Assembly: GCA_000004985.1 (NCBI GenBank)
Contig: GG738884.1
Direction: 5' to 3' (one strand)
DNA: 64,000 nt
Origin: Naegleria gruberi
Lineage: Eukaryota
The position numbers and the translations under genes were made by a program. The notes below the pieces were generated by a model. It saw only the letters and a list, made by a program, of their open reading frames with translations. It ran no database searches and had not been told where the DNA came from. Shown here piece by piece: positions 4,474 to 62,038 of the stretch (position 1 is its first letter; the number at the start of each line of letters is the position of its first letter).

Positions 4474-5504
4474 TTATTTCTTCTTTTTACTAGATACTGG
4501 CCTAGAGCTTGATTGTTTTTGTTTTTGTTGTGACGTTGTTGCCAATACTTTCTTTCTTCTCTGTTCAAGAATGGTTTCTCTTTGCTTTTCCTTTTCTTCC
4601 TCTTCGTCCAGTTTTGATTTGATTGAGAGAGGAAGCCAATTATCCAATTCTTGAACTAGGAGGGCATCTCGTTTTCGTTCTGCTTCAATTTCTTGCATCT
4701 TTAATCTTTTATAGAACTCATCATTTTCTTCCAGTAAGGTTCTTGATGTTTTGCTAAGAGTTTCACACAATCTGTCTCCACTGTTGTTTTTCAAGTTCAT
4801 GATTGGTGAATTCATTTGAAATCTTATCTAAAGACTTACTTTGGGTGAATATATTTTGGGTGATCCGAGTGAACACTCAGAACAGGAGGGTACATTACAT
4901 TCGATGCAGTGGCCCTACTTAAATCATGTCCAGAAAATACTGATGGCCTCTGATTAATATTATTCTTTTTTCTTCCCATGAATTGTTCCAAAGCTACTTC
5001 AGTTCCTCTTTTTTGTTCAACTCGTTTACCACTCTCATCATAAACCTTCTTTGGTTTTGGAACTCCAAATAAATGGTCTAACTCGGTCTTGTTATTTACA
5101 TGATCTAGTAAACACAATTGAAGATCAAAATTGATCATCATTCTCAATTAAAACCTACCTGGAAACATTGCCTTTCTCTTCACTTTAATTTCCTCAGTTG
5201 TTGGTCCATCAATCATCTTTTTCCTCACACTTTTATATTCTGGTTGTGGTTCACTTAATACTCTTATTTGTGGTTTATATTCAAATTCACTTGTTGGTTC
5301 TTGCAGAGGGTAATGTTTTCGGATACTATCACCATGAGTTATCCTTGGAAATTCACTTGTATAGAATGTTGAAAATCCCTTCCCCAAAGTTTCCGTCGTT
5401 GCTGTTGTATCATTATTCAAATAGGTTCTCTTCTGTCCGTACATCCAATGATTAGGAGAGGATCCGACAATTCCCTCTAATCCACCCGAGAAATTACTAG
5501 TCAT
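4474..5504 (-). CDS. Hypothetical protein with a C-terminal charged coiled-coil (~305 aa). Three exons: 5504..5159, 5104..4840, 4780..4474.
   Basis: Three consecutive minus-strand ORFs join in frame through a 54-nt intron (GTAGGT...ttactag) and a 59-nt intron (GTAAGT...aacaacag). The C-terminal tail is rich in E/K/R heptads. Product not recognised. Confidence 0.45.
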
Positions 5505-6109: not shown

Positions 6110-6985
6110 ATGAATCAACTAATACCAATTCCCATTCTTTCATTCAAAAATCTCTCCACAGAACAATTAAAACAATTTTTCCTCGATTCACAGCCTGTGA
6201 TTATTCGAGGAATCTCCGAGAATCAGATTTTCTCTCATGTTATGGAATGGTCATTGGATGATCTTTTGAAAAAGGTTCCAAATGTTGAATTTCCAATTAC
6301 TTATCGTGGTGAGGATAGTCATGTGGTTGGAGCTGAATCTGTTTCCAAGATGAAACTTGGAGAATTTATTGGAAAGTGTAGTGAGATTAAATCAGCAGAG
6401 TTGGAGAAGAAATCTTGTATTCGATACTACTTGTCAGGAAGTAATTTATTGGAAGATCTGAATGGGGATAATGCGAATGATGAACTAGTTCAAATAAGAA
6501 ATGAAACTTTGCAATTTAAACAATTTATTGAGGAAAAATTATCAGAAACTAAACGATTGTCCTCTTTAGGATTTTGGATTGGTTTGGATGGACAGAAAAC
6601 TCATCTCCACTTTGATTGTGTAAATAATCTCATGTTGCAAATTAGAGGAAGAAAGACTTTTCTACTAGTTTCTCCCCATAATCATTTGAAACTTAATTTA
6701 CATTCGTATAAATCGTCGAAAGGTCAAGATATGGATGGAGAAATTTACCGATTCTCTCAGTATGATATCTTCAATACGGAAATTCCAAAAGTTGAAATAT
6801 TTAAAGGAACAATTGAAAGAGGAGATTGCATTTTGATTCCTTTAGGTTGGTTTCATGCAGTTTATTCTGAAGGAGAGGAAACAAATTATGGATCTTACAA
6901 TATTGCCTTAAACGCATTTTGGAATGCAACTGAGAGTGAATGGGATACATGGAAACATTTAAAACTATTCAGAAATAATTATTAA
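6110..6985 (+). CDS. JmjC/cupin-like 2-oxoglutarate/Fe(II) hydroxylase domain protein
   Basis: Single ORF of 291 aa. The metal-binding triad HxD...H is present (GQKTHLHFDCVNNLMLQIRGRKTFLLVSP ... WFHAVYS), as is typical of JmjC/HSPBAP1-like proteins. Confidence 0.75.
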   Translation: MNQLIPIPILSFKNLSTEQLKQFFLDSQPVIIRGISENQIFSHVMEWSLDDLLKKVPNVEFPITYRGEDSHVVGAESVSKMKLGEFIGKCSEIKSAELEKKSCIRYYLSGSNLLEDLNGDNANDELVQIRNETLQFKQFIEEKLSETKRLSSLGFWIGLDGQKTHLHFDCVNNLMLQIRGRKTFLLVSPHNHLKLNLHSYKSSKGQDMDGEIYRFSQYDIFNTEIPKVEIFKGTIERGDCILIPLGWFHAVYSEGEETNYGSYNIALNAFWNATESEWDTWKHLKLFRNNY

Positions 6986-7326
6986 TTTGTTTTTTTGGAC
7001 ATGTGACAGTCTTTAGAATTTAACAGAATGAAATTTCAAATGGGATGGACTATGTATGATTGAATATTCGTGTAATAGTTGTGTCCAATCTTTTGCAGAT
7101 TATGCTTTTGGATTAAGGTGTTGTATAAAAATTCGTCCAGTTTCGAATATACTTTCGCACTGTAAGAAATAATTACATCTTATATAATTGTAAAGGAAAA
7201 GGATTGTAATCAACACAATCCGTAACCTCCAAACTTCCAAAATTCACACAGTGGAACGTCAATGCAAAAACTTTCTAATCACAAATCATTTCGAATAAAA
7301 AAAAAACTCTTTCAACAAGTGAACCG

Positions 7327-23718: not shown

Positions 23719-24600
23719 ATGAATCAATTGGAATCAATCATTGCCGATTACCTCTCCAATCATTGTTCTTCATCTCCGTTGGATGATGATGAATTTTCCA
23801 TTATTAAATTAAAAATTGAAACTCTAAAAAATTCGATAAGCGAAAAGGAATGGAAGGCAATCAGGGAAGATATAAGAGTGGAGGATTTATTTGGTTCAAT
23901 ATATTTGTTAATTTTGAAGGAATTGATGCCATTCCGAGATGGATATTCGCAAGAATTTCGAGATTGCTCACTCTGTCCCGAACGTTACATTAATTTTCAA
24001 ATCAAGCCTTCGTGTTGTACCTCAAAGTGTACTAAAACTACTTGTGAAATAATTAAGTATCTGGTGATGAATGTTTATGAGAGTGAATTATTGGTAGATA
24101 GACAGGCTTCATGTTGGTTTGATGGATATTATGTAAGATCAATGCATTGGTTGGCTCACTTTGGTCAATTATCACTTGTGAGATTTTTGGTGAATGAATG
24201 TGGATTTAAGGCACAAGTCCAATCTGATATTGATTGGGTCTCAGATTGGTCAATTAATCAGGCCTTTATTGAAAAACACTTTGATTTGGTTAGAGAAATG
24301 TGTAAGGGAGATTATTCCTTCATGTTGAGAGATAGGTGTGATCATATTCCAGCTGGAATGTTATATTCTTGTTTTGAAATGATCAAAATGGAAGTAGAAA
24401 ACACTTGGGATTATTGGCTATTTATTGTAGAGGAATGTTTGAGGGGAAAGATTACAGATGAAATATTGGATGAAGCAATGGAGACATGGGATAGAAAACC
24501 GAAAGATTTTCTGAGAGCCAAACAAGATCTTTGTTTGAGGGAAAATCCAATACGATCTCACAAACAACTTTCTGATATCATATTTGAATTTGAACTTTGA
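23719..24600 (+). CDS. Hypothetical protein, 293 aa, cysteine-rich middle region
   Basis: ORF with ATG at 23719. It is transcribed divergently from 22391..23662, with only 56 bp between the two start codons. No domain recognised. Confidence 0.5.
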   Translation: MNQLESIIADYLSNHCSSSPLDDDEFSIIKLKIETLKNSISEKEWKAIREDIRVEDLFGSIYLLILKELMPFRDGYSQEFRDCSLCPERYINFQIKPSCCTSKCTKTTCEIIKYLVMNVYESELLVDRQASCWFDGYYVRSMHWLAHFGQLSLVRFLVNECGFKAQVQSDIDWVSDWSINQAFIEKHFDLVREMCKGDYSFMLRDRCDHIPAGMLYSCFEMIKMEVENTWDYWLFIVEECLRGKITDEILDEAMETWDRKPKDFLRAKQDLCLRENPIRSHKQLSDIIFEFEL

Positions 24601-24864
24601 TTCAATACAATCGAATAGCTCAATCATGAAAATGAATAACCAAAACTAAACTGTACAATTCTAACAATCTGATTCCAATTCATCTCTTAAACGTGTAACA
24701 TCATCACCTCTACAAGCAGCTCTCGCTTTAAATCTCATTTCTAATGAGTGTTACCCTTTTCATGGCAGATTACAAATTTCAAACTTTAAATTTACGCTTC
24801 AATTTACAAAAGCTAAATTTAAACCAGAAAACTCAAACTTTCAAAATTCAACAAAACAAAAAAA

Positions 24865-26552
24865 ATGTTCATCTCATCTCTGATAGAAAACGTGAGTCAA
24901 GGAGGAGGTATTGTCAGTTCCTCGGAGAATGTCACTCTATTCTCATCATCTTTTATAATTTTGATGGGTGTTGTGGGTTATGTCATGTATTTTCTGAAGG
25001 ATACTTTGGAGGAATTTATTAGAAGGTTATTCTTTTTCATGTTGGATTTGTCGGATGCTGATCAGGAGTTTGTTTGGTTCTTTACCTTCTTTTCATTCCA
25101 TCCCTATACGAATCATGGTTCTTCACATATTAAACCATATCAAAAGAAGGCCAATAAGGTGAATGATTATGATGATGATCCACTTGAATATGATGGTTTT
25201 GATTTGGGAAAGGATGAGGAATTTAAAAAGACCAAGTTTGTTCCTGCACCTGGCTATCATGTAATTTACATTGAGGGAAAGCCATTATTGATTAATATGA
25301 TTAGTACCATGCCAACTAATGGAAATATTATGAAAGCTAAGGAAAATGTGGAAATTTACAAGCCAAAGTATGATTTTATTGATGCCATTTTGAGAATGAT
25401 TGTCCCATGCACTGATGACAATAATTGTCCAGATCCATTGACTATGGCCAAGAGAGCTGGTTTGAACACTTCAAGTTTCCTCTCACAAAGATATGATGAG
25501 AATGGAAAGGTCATTGCTAAAACTCAAAAGATTTCTTCCAGTAATTATTTCAAGGAATTGATGGCCAATTGCTATTATATCAATACTCTTTATATGAAAT
25601 CCAAGACAACAATTTATACACAAAATTATGGTAGATGGGCTGCTTCATGTGTTAAACATAAGAGAGATAAGAATTCTGTCATTTTGGATAATGGTGTCTG
25701 GGAGAGTCTTTACACGGATGTTGAACAATTCTTGAATAGCAGAGATTGGTATTTCGATCAAGGTATTCCATACAGAAGAGGTTATTTATTATATGTAAGT
25801 TTTTTTAAATTATTGGAGGATTTAATTTTTAACACAATATCTATCTCACTAAACTTTCTATATTCATGAATTTTCAATCAATCAAATAACAACAGGGACC
25901 ACCAGGTACAGGTAAATCAAGTACTATTGGATCTATTGCAGCAGCTTTCAATATGAATATTTGTGTTGTCAATTTGGCTTCTAAGGAATTGAGTGATGAA
26001 GACCTTAATGCAATGTTCAGTAGTGCTCCATTGGATGCCTTGATTGTTCTTGAAGATATTGATTCTTCCTTCATGAATTCTACTGTTGAGGAGAAGAAAC
26101 CTTCCAAGAAGGAAGATGGAGAAGAAAAGGAAGATGAAGAGCCATCAGAAATCAGTAATGTCATTCAAACCAAATCTCAAGTTACTTTCAGTGGTATTTT
26201 GAATGCCATTGATGGTATTGCTGCTTAAGAATCAAGAATGATTTTCATGACAACTAATTACAAGGATAAGCTTCCACCTGCACTTATTAGAAATGGTAGA
26301 ATTGACAAGAAGATTTTCATTGGATATGCCACAGAACATCAAGTCAAGGCCTATGTTAAAAAGTTCTACGAAAAGGATAATCTTTCAGAGGAGGAATTCT
26401 CAACTTTAATTGAACAATTCTGGAATAAGATCAAGAACATGTCCATCTGTATGGCTCAATTGCAAGGTTTCTTATTACTCTATAGACATTCTCTTAAGGA
26501 TCTCGTCAATGCTGCTGATGAATTTGAAAAATTCACCAAAGATGAAATTTAA
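24865..26552 (+). CDS. BCS1: BCS1-like mitochondrial AAA ATPase. Exons are 24865..25794 and 25896..26552. An in-frame TAA at 26226..26228 interrupts the AAA domain.
   Basis: The BCS1_N-like N-terminal region ends ...RRGYLLY|GTAAGT. After acceptor aacaacag the frame continues GPPGTGKSSTIGSIAAAFNMNICVVNLAS (Walker A), ...LIVLEDIDS (Walker B), ...[47 protein letters not shown] (sensor/arginine finger region). The stop falls inside the conserved DG(V/I)A-S/T-E-x-R(I/M)(V/I)FMTTN block, and the reading frame is unchanged across it. Confidence 0.75.
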
Positions 26553-26733: not shown

Positions 26734-28212
26734 TTAAACTTGTTGAGCTCTTCTTGAATTTCTCTTAATTGTTATAACTACAACCAGGATAGCAATCAAA
26801 CCAAATAATGGGAAAACAACAGCAGAAGTGATAATAACTGGTAATCTATAACTCCATCCAAAATAATAAATATTTGAAATATATGGAATAAATTCCATAT
26901 TTGTAGTAGTGGAACTTGAAGTAGGTCTAACAGAAACATAAACAGTCTTTGCATTAGTATAATAATTAGTATAACTCAATGATGAGTATTGAGAAGTGGA
27001 ATAAACATAAATTTCACTACTGCTATAGTAACTATCAGCATTAATTGTAATATAACCACTATAGCTTGATGAGGTGAATAAATTGATATCTTTCAATGTC
27101 AATGTAAAACCAGATGGAACTGAAATCTTGTAGTATTTTGTCGAATAGAGTGTACCAGTATTGACATAAGTTGCAGAATACAAGGTAGTTGCAGAACTCA
27201 TTGGATCAGAATTAGCAGCATTAATTGTTTGAGCAGCAATTGAAAGATATTGACAACTTGAAGGAATATTGCTACATGTCAAGCCAGTGGAAGTGACACT
27301 AACTGTAGTTTTAGAATATGAATTTCCATCAGCAGAGCAAAAACAAGCAAGAGTGCTTTTCTGAATCAGAACAGAATTTCCATTCACATCATAAAAATTA
27401 TTTCCACTAGCATATGAATATTGTAAACTAGCTCCATATACATTAGGATTGGATAAACTTGTTACACTGAATGCATACAATGTACTATAACCAGTTGTTT
27501 TATAGGCATAGACGGCGTTAGCAATTGAAAATCCATAACCATTCAAGTTAGGCCAAACATTTGGCAATAAATAACTCATTGATTCAACCAATTGACCAAA
27601 TGCATTACTTCTCAATTGATAATTAAATTGATAAGGTCCAAAAAAGTTTTTAAATGGACCCAAAGTTGACTTTCCATCCTCAACAATTGCTGCAAATCCA
27701 ATAGTTGCACTTCCACTTGTTGCATTCTGAGTGAATGTATAACCAATAGTAGAGCCACTACTAGCAGCAGCATCAGTCGATTTAAAATAATACGAAACAC
27801 TTGGATTCAGTGTGAAAATTGCCATACTTTGAGGTCTGACATTTAACATGCCATTCGTACAAATATAAGTAAATGTAAAATCAACAGCAGCAGTAGCACT
27901 ATTATTTGCAGAATTGACACTATAAGATAAACCAGAAACACCCACCAAACTATATGGTAAAGTATTTAAACGACCTGAATAGGCAGAAGTTGCATAATTG
28001 CTAATGGTAAGAGTGAGAGGATCTGTTGAAGTTCTGTTGATATAAACATAGAGGGAACAGGAAGAGGTGGTTGTTGCTCCTGCGAAGGAATAGCTTGCGA
28101 AGGGAGAGGTGGTTGTGTATTGCACATTAAAGTCAGATGCGCTGACAAGTGTGAGTAGTGACAGGAGTAAAAGTGTGAAGAAAAATATTGTTCGAGGAGT
28201 GTTGTTGGGCAT
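26734..28212 (-). CDS. Ser/Thr/Tyr-rich type I membrane glycoprotein (adhesin-like surface protein)
   Basis: Probable start MPNNTPRTIFFFTLLLLSLLTLVSA at 28212 (signal peptide). There are ~430 aa of S/T/Y/N/G-rich repeats with many NxS/T sites, then a C-terminal TM helix (LPVIITSAVVFPLFGLIAILVVVITI) and a short basic tail. Confidence 0.6.
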   Translation of the reverse strand: MPNNTPRTIFFFTLLLLSLLTLVSASDFNVQYTTTSPFASYSFAGATTTSSCSLYVYINRTSTDPLTLTISNYATSAYSGRLNTLPYSLVGVSGLSYSVNSANNSATAAVDFTFTYICTNGMLNVRPQSMAIFTLNPSVSYYFKSTDAAASSGSTIGYTFTQNATSGSATIGFAAIVEDGKSTLGPFKNFFGPYQFNYQLRSNAFGQLVESMSYLLPNVWPNLNGYGFSIANAVYAYKTTGYSTLYAFSVTSLSNPNVYGASLQYSYASGNNFYDVNGNSVLIQKSTLACFCSADGNSYSKTTVSVTSTGLTCSNIPSSCQYLSIAAQTINAANSDPMSSATTLYSATYVNTGTLYSTKYYKISVPSGFTLTLKDINLFTSSSYSGYITINADSYYSSSEIYVYSTSQYSSLSYTNYYTNAKTVYVSVRPTSSSTTTNMEFIPYISNIYYFGWSYRLPVIITSAVVFPLFGLIAILVVVITIKRNSRRAQQV

Positions 28213-42461: not shown

Positions 42462-44264
42462 TTAAAATATGCCATACTTTCCAGGAGAGAGAATATTATT
42501 AGGATCAAGCGTTTTCTTTAAAGTTTGAAGAAGAGGTGGAACTGCATTATTGTCTTGTAACCAATTGACTGATTGAATTCCCAATCTGTATGGAACGTAG
42601 CCCAGTTTTTGACCTGCGTTCATTAGTTCATGATAGCACACTTGTGCACGTTTCATTTCTTCCTCATTATTTCTATCAAATAATAGAGGAATAGTACCAA
42701 CGCAACATCTATCCGAAAGACTGGTCAAAGTCATGAGTGGTTCAGTTTTGTGTTTCTTACAAATTTCATTGACCATTGAGGTGAATGAGTTCAAGTCTTG
42801 AGGAGTGATTGGTATGAGTGGATTGTACCAAATAATACCAGCTCCATCTTTGGATGGATTCCAAGGTTTATCTGTTGGTCTTTCACCTGATTTCCAATAA
42901 GCAATACGAAGACCAGTTTCATTTGGAATACCAGAAAATAACTCTAAAGATTTGGAAAGAACATTCGCATAGGTTGCCAAGTGTGTCTTGTTCACAATTG
43001 GAATTTGGTTTAAAAAGCTGGAAGTGGAGTGGACGAAATTGGCAGAAAGAAAGATATTTCTCTTACTTCCATACCTTCTCAAAATCTTCTTGATATCACT
43101 TCTTGCAGCTTTGATCACTGCAGAACTGCCATACAAATTACCAACTCCGTTCCATGCTGTGAATTGATTCTTCTTACAGAACGAATCAATATACGATTGT
43201 GGTAGCATTCCATCGACTGCTTGATCTTTCGGATAAGGCCCAGCCATAGGCACCATGGCATAGTTATTGATTAGTTTTACAGAACCAATAATTCCATTAG
43301 AACATCTCAAGATTTCTTTGGAAGCAGAAACAGCATTCGAAAGGTCATCAAAAAAGAAGAAGAAACTTTCAACCTTTTCTGGTTTAGGATACAAGGCAAT
43401 CGACATCTTGGTTACAATTCCCAAATTACTTTGAGAAAACAAACCCTCCAAATAAGGACCAGTTTGCCATTTGTAAAGTGTGGAAACATGTTTCCCGCCC
43501 ATTTTGTCCAACATGGATTCATGGACATTACCTGTTGGTAACACAATTCTCATACTTGTAGCAGCACCAAAATGATCAATGTATGGTGAGATTCCATATC
43601 CTCTTTCCAGAGCATTGGAAAGTAAACTACATGTTGGACCAGCACCAGTAACAGGAACTGTATAGTCAAGATTCCTTTCTTGTAAATAATCCAAAAGTTG
43701 TTGTTGAGTAACACCTGGTTCGACATGTGCAACACCATTTTCTTCATCCATATCTAATCTTGTCATTTTACTCATCTTTAACAAGACAGTTCTTTGATTA
43801 GTGGCAGGAAGAGCTGAGCCATAACCCCAATTCTGACCAGAACTGACAGGATTTAAAGGTACTTGATATCTGTTGGCTATCTTGACAATCTGAACAACCT
43901 GATCATGACTTGTTGGATAAACAATAGCTGGAACGTTTCGAATATTTCCAGAGCAATCAGCAAGCTCTCTCGAAAGACTTTCCTCATCTGTTGCCACATT
44001 AGTTGCACCAACAATAGAACGAAAGTGTTCCAGAGCTCTTGCCAACAAAATATCACCATTCGTCAAAGAGTCTTTGTTAGTAATCTTGAGTGAAGCTTGC
44101 TCGACATGTGAAAGCTCTTCTTTGACTTTCAATGGAGAATGAGTAATAATAGAAGATGAAGAATAGAAAGAGAGTGTATTAGGTGAAGTATTATTGGTAA
44201 AAGAACCAATGAACAACAACTTATTCTTATGGACATTCGCTAATTGATTTCGAATAGTTTTCAT
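42462..44264 (-). CDS. FAD-linked oxidoreductase, PCMH-type FAD-binding domain (VAO / D-lactate dehydrogenase family), probably mitochondrial
   Basis: 600-aa ORF with a basic N-terminal presequence-like leader. The FAD_binding_4-type block reads VPLNPVSSGQNWGYGSALP...VLLKMSKMTRLDMDEENGVAHVEPGVTQQQLLDYL...VPVTGAGPTCSLLSNALERGYG. A C-terminal oxidase domain follows. Confidence 0.75.
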   Translation of the reverse strand: MKTIRNQLANVHKNKLLFIGSFTNNTSPNTLSFYSSSSIITHSPLKVKEELSHVEQASLKITNKDSLTNGDILLARALEHFRSIVGATNVATDEESLSRELADCSGNIRNVPAIVYPTSHDQVVQIVKIANRYQVPLNPVSSGQNWGYGSALPATNQRTVLLKMSKMTRLDMDEENGVAHVEPGVTQQQLLDYLQERNLDYTVPVTGAGPTCSLLSNALERGYGISPYIDHFGAATSMRIVLPTGNVHESMLDKMGGKHVSTLYKWQTGPYLEGLFSQSNLGIVTKMSIALYPKPEKVESFFFFFDDLSNAVSASKEILRCSNGIIGSVKLINNYAMVPMAGPYPKDQAVDGMLPQSYIDSFCKKNQFTAWNGVGNLYGSSAVIKAARSDIKKILRRYGSKRNIFLSANFVHSTSSFLNQIPIVNKTHLATYANVLSKSLELFSGIPNETGLRIAYWKSGERPTDKPWNPSKDGAGIIWYNPLIPITPQDLNSFTSMVNEICKKHKTEPLMTLTSLSDRCCVGTIPLLFDRNNEEEMKRAQVCYHELMNAGQKLGYVPYRLGIQSVNWLQDNNAVPPLLQTLKKTLDPNNILSPGKYGIF

Positions 44265-44472: not shown

Positions 44473-44522
44473 NNNNNNNNNNNNNNNNNNNNNNNNNNNN
44501 NNNNNNNNNNNNNNNNNNNNNN
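44473..44522. other. Assembly gap (run of 50 N)
   Basis: Literal n characters in the sequence. It interrupts the 5' end of the gene at 44523..46122. Confidence 1.
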
Positions 44523-61967: not shown

Positions 61968-62038
61968 TCGGGTGTGGTATAGTGGTAGCATTCCAGACTG
62001 TCACTCTGGCGACCCGGGTTCAATTCCCGGCACTCGAG
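61968..62038 (+). tRNA. tRNA-Asp (anticodon GUC)
   Basis: TCGGGTGTGGTATAGTGGTAGCATTCCAGACTGTCACTCTGGCGACCCGGGTTCAATTCCCGGCACTCGAG aligns nearly residue-for-residue with eukaryotic tRNA-Asp. Anticodon stem CCAGA/TCTGG with loop CTGTCAC. T-arm CCGGG TTCAATT CCCGG. Confidence 0.85.

Follow-up and report, generated by a model that had tools for sequence, protein, structure and literature searches.

A single-base difference makes a conserved Gln codon read TAA in a BCS1-like AAA ATPase gene of Naegleria gruberi NEG-M

Introduction

Is the TAA codon that interrupts the catalytic domain of NAEGRDRAFT_70508 in the genome sequence a real mutation, a sequencing error, or a stop that the cell removes or decodes? 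The window considered here, that is, the whole stretch of 64,000 nucleotides (64 kb) that was analyzed, belongs to the reference assembly of Naegleria gruberi NEG-M; four of its long ORFs are identical to the NEG-M proteins XP_002674478, XP_002674481, XP_002674489, and XP_002674417, all encoded on one 363-kb scaffold. The gene at positions 24865-26552, NAEGRDRAFT_70508, has two exons and encodes a BCS1-like AAA ATPase, with a homology-defined frame of 528 codons on the + strand. Bcs1, whose structures are available for mouse (6UKO/6U1Y) and yeast (6SH3), is an AAA ATPase that forms heptamers and translocates the Rieske Fe-S protein in its folded state. A search of the literature found no main text that names NAEGRDRAFT_70508.

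Results

Gene structure and domain composition

The exons, the intron, and the domains and motifs of the gene are as follows.

24865-25794 (+): exon 1, codons 1-310, defined by the ORF and the splice model; the same exon is present in the public entry XP_002674410.1
24940-24996 (+): hydrophobic N-terminal segment FSSSFIILMGVVGYVMYFL, residues 26-44, spotted by eye
Residues 36-164 (+): BCS1_N domain (PF08740), 36.8 bits versus a cut-off of 28.1
25795-25895 (+): intron of 101 nt, phase 0, GTAAGT...AACAG, 22% GC, just before Walker A
25896-26552 (+): exon 2, homology-defined, codons 311-528 and the terminal TAA at 26550-26552
25896-25919 (+): Walker A motif GPPGTGKS, which opens exon 2 (by motif location, as are the five motifs below)
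26040-26063 (+): Walker B motif
26187-26216 (+): helix alpha-3
26226-26228 (+): in-frame TAA, codon 421, between helix alpha-3 and the sensor-1 strand; Gln in the orthologs
26235-26258 (+): sensor-1 strand RMIFMTTN
26277-26306 (+): arginine-finger region
26448-26471 (+): lid motif CMAQLQGF

Exon 1 ends with ...GIPYRRGYLLY, and excision of 25795-25895 rejoins ...GYLLY to GPPGTGKS. The 101-nt intron, which is also a part of the annotated gene model, is a genuine spliceosomal intron. In addition to BCS1_N, the Pfam search identified the AAA core (PF00004, 67 bits) and the lid domain AAA_lid_BCS1 (PF25426, 36 bits), and all three matches exceed the curated cut-offs. Both hallmarks of BCS1-like proteins are present, namely a BCS1_N region following an N-terminal membrane anchor, and the AAA core motifs combined with a BCS1-type lid. 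Sensor 1, the arginine fingers, and the lid are encoded 3' of the TAA, and hence are retained in the DNA but missing from a terminated product.

The architecture of BCS1_N, AAA core, and BCS1-type lid is that of the mitochondrial chaperone Bcs1. The AAA domain of mouse Bcs1 (6UKO/6U1Y) aligns to NAEGRDRAFT_70508 over ~210 residues (E=1e-43), and the two proteins have in common GIPYRRGYLLYGPPG-GKSS, LLEDxD, TFSG(I/L)LNA(I/L)DG, R(M/I)(I/V)FMTTNY, and PALIRxGR(I/V)D. With canonical Bcs1 proteins, the match is confined to the AAA half of NAEGRDRAFT_70508 (~40% identity, ~50% coverage). Unlike Bcs1, NAEGRDRAFT_70508 has an N-terminal region that is ~100 residues longer, in which the BCS1_N match is weak, an acidic, Lys-rich insertion after Walker B, and the stop at codon 421 in the assembly. 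Sequence similarity places the protein in a BCS1-like paralog clade specific to Naegleria/heteroloboseans, of which N. lovaniensis possesses at least three paralogs. Because of this specific clade membership, NAEGRDRAFT_70508 may not be a Rieske translocase.

The TAA codon lies within conserved coding sequence

When the N. lovaniensis ortholog was compared with the window by tblastn, its residues 321-553 aligned to 25896-26546 in a single frame running through the TAA, with 59.7% identity over 233 residues. The coding potential on the two sides of 26226-26228 is 0.29 and 0.22 per codon, versus a mean of 0.13 for the coding sequence of the window. The frame is unchanged across the TAA, and the homology is much stronger than chance would give; the in-frame stop is thus confirmed. 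The preliminary description of the locus, made from the letters of the sequence, had placed this TAA in the AAA core of a BCS1-like ATPase and had given the peptide around it; in the splice model it is codon 421, and the translation reproduces the peptide, and the tblastn alignment the identical frame before and after the stop. It was also stated there that the stop replaces one residue of a highly conserved block. The block is conserved as described, yet the replaced residue is the position 'x' of this block, which varies in the wider family (Thr in mouse Bcs1) and is Gln in seven proteins of the Naegleria clade.

Termination followed by reinitiation at the ATG at 26238, three codons past the TAA, was considered and rejected, since reinitiation after an ORF of 420 codons is inefficient in eukaryotes and the respective Met is Ile in N. 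lovaniensis.

Relatives and the ancestral codon

All Naegleria-clade orthologs and paralogs examined that cover the site of codon 421 have Gln in this position (7/7). In the N. lovaniensis ortholog C9374_008885 (P0001) the codon is CAA and the local sequence is DGIAAQEGRIIFMTTN; a relative from a JGI metagenome (P0003+P0121, locus L002) has the Gln codon CAG; and the five paralog sequences read (S/A)QESR. The aligned residue of mouse Bcs1 is the Thr of DGVASTEARIVFMTTN; in this alignment the TAA falls immediately ahead of the sensor-1 strand. The comparison with orthologs, which had been proposed as a check in the preliminary description, has therefore yielded sense codons in the relatives, and the TAA is a single C-to-T transition away from the CAA of N. 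lovaniensis.

The N. lovaniensis ortholog and the JGI relative are 60% and 68-69% identical, respectively, to NAEGRDRAFT_70508 over the full length. Like NAEGRDRAFT_70508, both have one intron near Walker A, and the local peptide, which ends with (S/G)R, is the same. In contrast to the TAA-containing gene of N. gruberi, they are intact, with CAA or CAG at the site, and the position of the intron is slightly different in each species.

An annotated 39-nt intron that spans the stop

The public entry for NAEGRDRAFT_70508 (XP_002674410.1 / EFC41666.1 / D2VNI1) has 515 amino acids, and the exons 24865-25794, 25896-26190, and 26230-26552 translate exactly to XP_002674410.1. This model contains an additional intron.

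26191-26229 (+): annotated 'intron' of 39 nt, GTGGTA...TTAAG, with GT...AG boundaries, which brackets the TAA

Excision takes out 12 residues and the stop, along with the initial base of the codon that follows; joining the two ends then makes a Lys codon. If the segment were truly spliced, intronization would have rescued the frame and the product would be the 515-aa protein. In accordance with this possibility, the span has GT...AG ends and a length that is a multiple of three, so that the downstream frame is kept; the model is present in RefSeq; a 37-nt intron in a close relative demonstrates that such a length is possible; and the gene product was detected by mass spectrometry against the 515-aa entry. 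The evolution of the segment argues for the opposite. Three Naegleria species encode the same 13 amino acids in it, although most of the 13 codons differ synonymously, and thus 26191-26229 is ancestral coding sequence. The part covered by a contig from a closely related strain (L001, see below), 26191-26212, has 0/22 differences from it, versus ~20% in the true intron of the same gene. At 38%, its GC content is above that of real introns (22-28%), and its donor, GTGGTA, does not have the GTNNGT common to the verified introns, only four of which were available for comparison. Hence the segment neither evolves as non-coding DNA nor has an intron-like composition or a consensus donor. Its removal would cost the protein helix alpha-3, including the LNALDG motif that is found across the family and aligned in mouse Bcs1, and the product would probably be misfolded.

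Gene predictors commonly invent short introns around in-frame stops or frameshifts. As a 39-nt, multiple-of-three GT...AG span bracketing a stop in conserved coding sequence, 26191-26229 is like such frame-rescue artefacts of annotation, and no feature distinguishing it from them was seen. We consider real splicing of this segment improbable; judging from its conservation and composition, the 39-nt intron was most likely introduced by the gene predictor to get around the stop. Therefore XP_002674410.1 / D2VNI1, with 13 conserved core residues missing, probably does not describe a natural protein. Other mini-introns over the TAA were rejected as well: spans of 15, 36, and 39 nt ending at 26229 were noted by eye, and every frame-preserving GT...AG span deletes conserved core residues.

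Genetic code and read-through

In the window, TAA terminates 22/26 long ORFs, in three of them with G in position +4, as at codon 421. TAA triplets cluster at the ORF ends, and an ORF of 1745 codons contains zero internal TAA. Stops flanked on both sides by coding-like sequence were found at two places in the 64 kb, codon 421 and 5148-5150 (-). The second candidate for an interrupted gene was discarded, as its TAA sits in an ordinary 54-nt intron. Codon 421 is the sole stop-interrupted coding frame in the 64 kb, an isolated event in a standard-code genome.

Codes in which UAA and UAG are translated as Gln are used by many ciliates, hexamitid diplomonads, and some oxymonads and green algae, and UAA has a dual meaning in Blastocrithidia and Condylostoma. 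The similarity of codon 421 to these systems is an in-frame UAA where the relatives carry Gln. However, in variant-code organisms in-frame UAA is frequent in all genes, whereas in the N. gruberi window it occurs once in 64 kb, and here TAA is a common rather than a rare terminator. A variant code with UAA=Gln, suggested by the AT-rich eukaryotic DNA and the ancestral Gln, is ruled out by the ORF statistics and by the organism itself.

Programmed read-through or recoding of this single codon, with UAA decoded as Gln or another residue, would give the full-length protein. The intact and conserved downstream frame, the detection of the protein by mass spectrometry, the Gln meaning of UAA elsewhere in eukaryotes, and the ancestral Gln at codon 421 are all compatible with it. 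Nevertheless we regard it as very improbable, given that TAA is the main terminator, including three cases with +4 G, and that no other in-frame TAA is present in the coding sequence of the window. Further, the stop is not conserved: the ortholog of N. lovaniensis has CAA, that of the JGI relative CAG, and all paralogs have Gln. It thus does not behave as a conserved regulatory feature. The stop context, GCU UAA GAA UCA, is not a leaky one: its +4 G is shared with three genuine terminators, and to our knowledge UAA-GAA-UCA matches no known leaky stop motif. The 120 nt following the TAA, analyzed for a stimulatory RNA structure, fold no better than shuffled sequences (z=+0.65). No suppressor tRNA was found in the window, whose sole tRNA gene is tRNA-Asp, and a search for literature on UAA read-through in Naegleria returned nothing.

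Selection on the gene and age of the lesion

In a relative-rate test with the N. lovaniensis protein as the outgroup, N. gruberi was compared with its sister lineage. In the 106 alignable codons after the TAA, there are 9 N. gruberi-specific versus 11 sister-specific amino-acid changes, and before the TAA the numbers are 49 and 22, respectively. Relaxed constraint downstream of the stop would be visible as an excess of N. gruberi-specific changes, and no such excess was observed. Together with the intact motifs, this means that the lesion is either very young or not real. The constraint that the preliminary description had seen downstream of the stop, including the arginine-finger region, thus holds for all later motifs.

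A contig from an environmental metagenome (L001; ENA ERZ929261, PRJEB11402), representing an N. gruberi-like strain, matches positions 23807-26212 of the window with 97.8% identity and ends 14 bp before the TAA site. It differs from the window at 6 positions in ~1250 coding nt, two of them non-synonymous, versus 49 in 365 intron and intergenic nt; the real intron 25795-25895 is ~20% different (25 differences in 101 nt), and the exons ~0.5%. The small number of coding differences compared to the non-coding ones indicates purifying selection on the gene within this group of species; the dN/dS ratio upstream of the TAA is ~0.15, a value resting on very few sites. The introns and the intergenic DNA of the contig are 10-20% different from the window, with many indels. 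Two further proteins encoded in the window (P0160 and P0163) also have near-identical counterparts in ENA metagenomes. When the flanking ORF and the 104-aa ORF downstream were looked up by exact match, no second near-identical copy of the site came to light; a protein search with exon 2 as the query gave no near-identical fragment either, and the scan of JGI metagenomes yielded only distant relatives.

An in-frame stop in the catalytic core could be the mark of an old, decaying pseudogene, for which several lesions and relaxed constraint would be expected. Instead, the gene has a single stop, and neither a frameshift nor a further stop occurs over 527 codons; all motifs and the boundaries of the intron are intact; substitutions are not accelerated after the TAA (9 versus 11 changes); the dN/dS ratio, although based on very few sites, is low (~0.15); and a protein product was detected. 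Such a pseudogene is next to impossible, in agreement with the preliminary description, which had already dismissed it. What is firmly established is a one-base difference, CAA to TAA, whose evolutionary age is negligible, in a genome with the standard code and in a gene that is otherwise selected and expressed.

Expression

The protein has been found in the NEG-M whole-cell proteome, where XP_002674410.1 is represented by 3 unique peptides with 9.5% coverage and 8 MS/MS spectra (PMC9035749, supplementary DataSheet1, PRIDE PXD032745) and is quantified in 5/6 NEG-M samples (PMC9035749). In this data set the peptides are listed without positions, and the database sequence is the 515-aa entry. 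Hence the peptides indicate that the NAEGRDRAFT_70508 locus is translated, and, being without positions, they are silent on the passage of codon 421. Among the entries listed in the mitochondrial proteome supplements of PMC8134430, the protein does not occur.

Discussion

Three explanations had been left side by side in the preliminary description: a recent nonsense mutation, a base-call error, and read-through or recoding. The first two stand; the third is unlikely in view of the standard code, the unconserved stop, and the lack of a leaky context or a downstream structure. We favor the nonsense mutation, and estimate at about one half the probability that the TAA at codon 421 is a real, recent, possibly heterozygous allele. 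If, on the other hand, the TAA is an error of base calling or consensus, position 26226 is really C and codon 421 reads CAA; the gene then specifies a complete ATPase of 528 aa, and the stop and the 39-nt intron are both artefacts. Such an error is possible, if somewhat doubtful. It would account for the single-base difference from the ortholog codon, for the fully preserved downstream sequence with its unrelaxed constraint, and for the purifying selection on the gene in the closely related strain, and an intact gene explains the detection of the protein in 5/6 NEG-M samples at least as well. The assembly is a draft with gaps, for example, the run of 50 N at positions 44473-44522. Base 26226 is seen in this assembly alone, the one near-identical contig, L001, stopping 14 bp upstream, and therefore a consensus error in the 2010 draft predicts an identical sequence picture. 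However, no other suspicious coding stop was found in the 64 kb, and errors are thus not obviously frequent in this region. Moreover, as a rough prior, genuine nonsense SNPs in a heterozygous diploid should in general occur at least as often as stop-creating substitution errors. It is this expected excess of nonsense SNPs over errors, along with the reported heterozygous diploid state of Naegleria, that makes us favor a real allele. Naegleria has been reported to be a heterozygous diploid (PMC9928731).

Taken together, the two routes by which a real and homozygous T could still lead to a C-terminally complete protein, 39-nt splicing and UAA decoding, are unlikely. Along them, the locus would present either a freshly intronized segment of conserved coding sequence or efficient decoding of UAA in an otherwise standard code.

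The nonsense allele that we favor would be restricted to the NEG-M laboratory clone or to one of its two haplotypes. Its translation would stop after residue 420. The 420-residue product would keep the membrane anchor, the BCS1_N region, Walker A, and Walker B, and would lose the sensor-1 strand, the arginine fingers, and the lid; because of these losses it is predicted to be unable to hydrolyse ATP or to form a working ring. The mass-spectrometric signal would then be due to the second, intact allele, to the truncated N-terminal product, or to the two together.

The significance of the locus is mainly a matter of data quality, that is, of the correction of one RefSeq/UniProt entry. In phylogeny, structure prediction, and proteomics, XP_002674410.1 should be replaced by the 528-aa sequence with Gln421, or else the locus should be marked as a nonsense allele. 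Should the T be both real and heterozygous, it would be a small example of loss-of-function variation in a standard laboratory clone, in a family with multiple paralogs. The locus would be of broader interest only if the 39-nt splicing or the UAA decoding were true.

Intron positions near Walker A

The intron adjacent to Walker A occupies three positions in three Naegleria orthologs. In N. gruberi (25795-25895) it is a phase 0 intron of 101 nt between LLY and GPPGTGKS; in the JGI relative (L002, 1872-1908) it has 37 nt and follows GPPGTGK; and in N. lovaniensis (L003, about 6942-6996) it has 55 nt, lies within the first Arg codon of PYRRGYLLY, and contains an internal 17-nt tandem duplication. 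From these alignments, it looks like intron sliding or turnover within ~13 codons.

Other features of the window

The 54-nt in-frame intron at 5105-5158 (-), GTAGGT...ACTAG, which holds the TAA at 5148-5150, belongs to a multi-exon gene at ~4474-5504 (-); although it gives the impression of an interrupted ORF, it is an ordinary intron. The assembly gap of 50 N at 44473-44522 is situated just downstream of a D-lactate dehydrogenase-like gene (42462-44264, -). The only tRNA gene of the window, tRNA-Asp (GTC), is located at 61968-62038 (+). Directly downstream of NAEGRDRAFT_70508, the gene at 26734-28212 (-) encodes XP_002674481, a predicted protein of 492 aa rich in Ser, Thr, and Tyr. With its signal-like N-terminus and a C-terminal hydrophobic segment, XP_002674481 is probably a surface or membrane protein.
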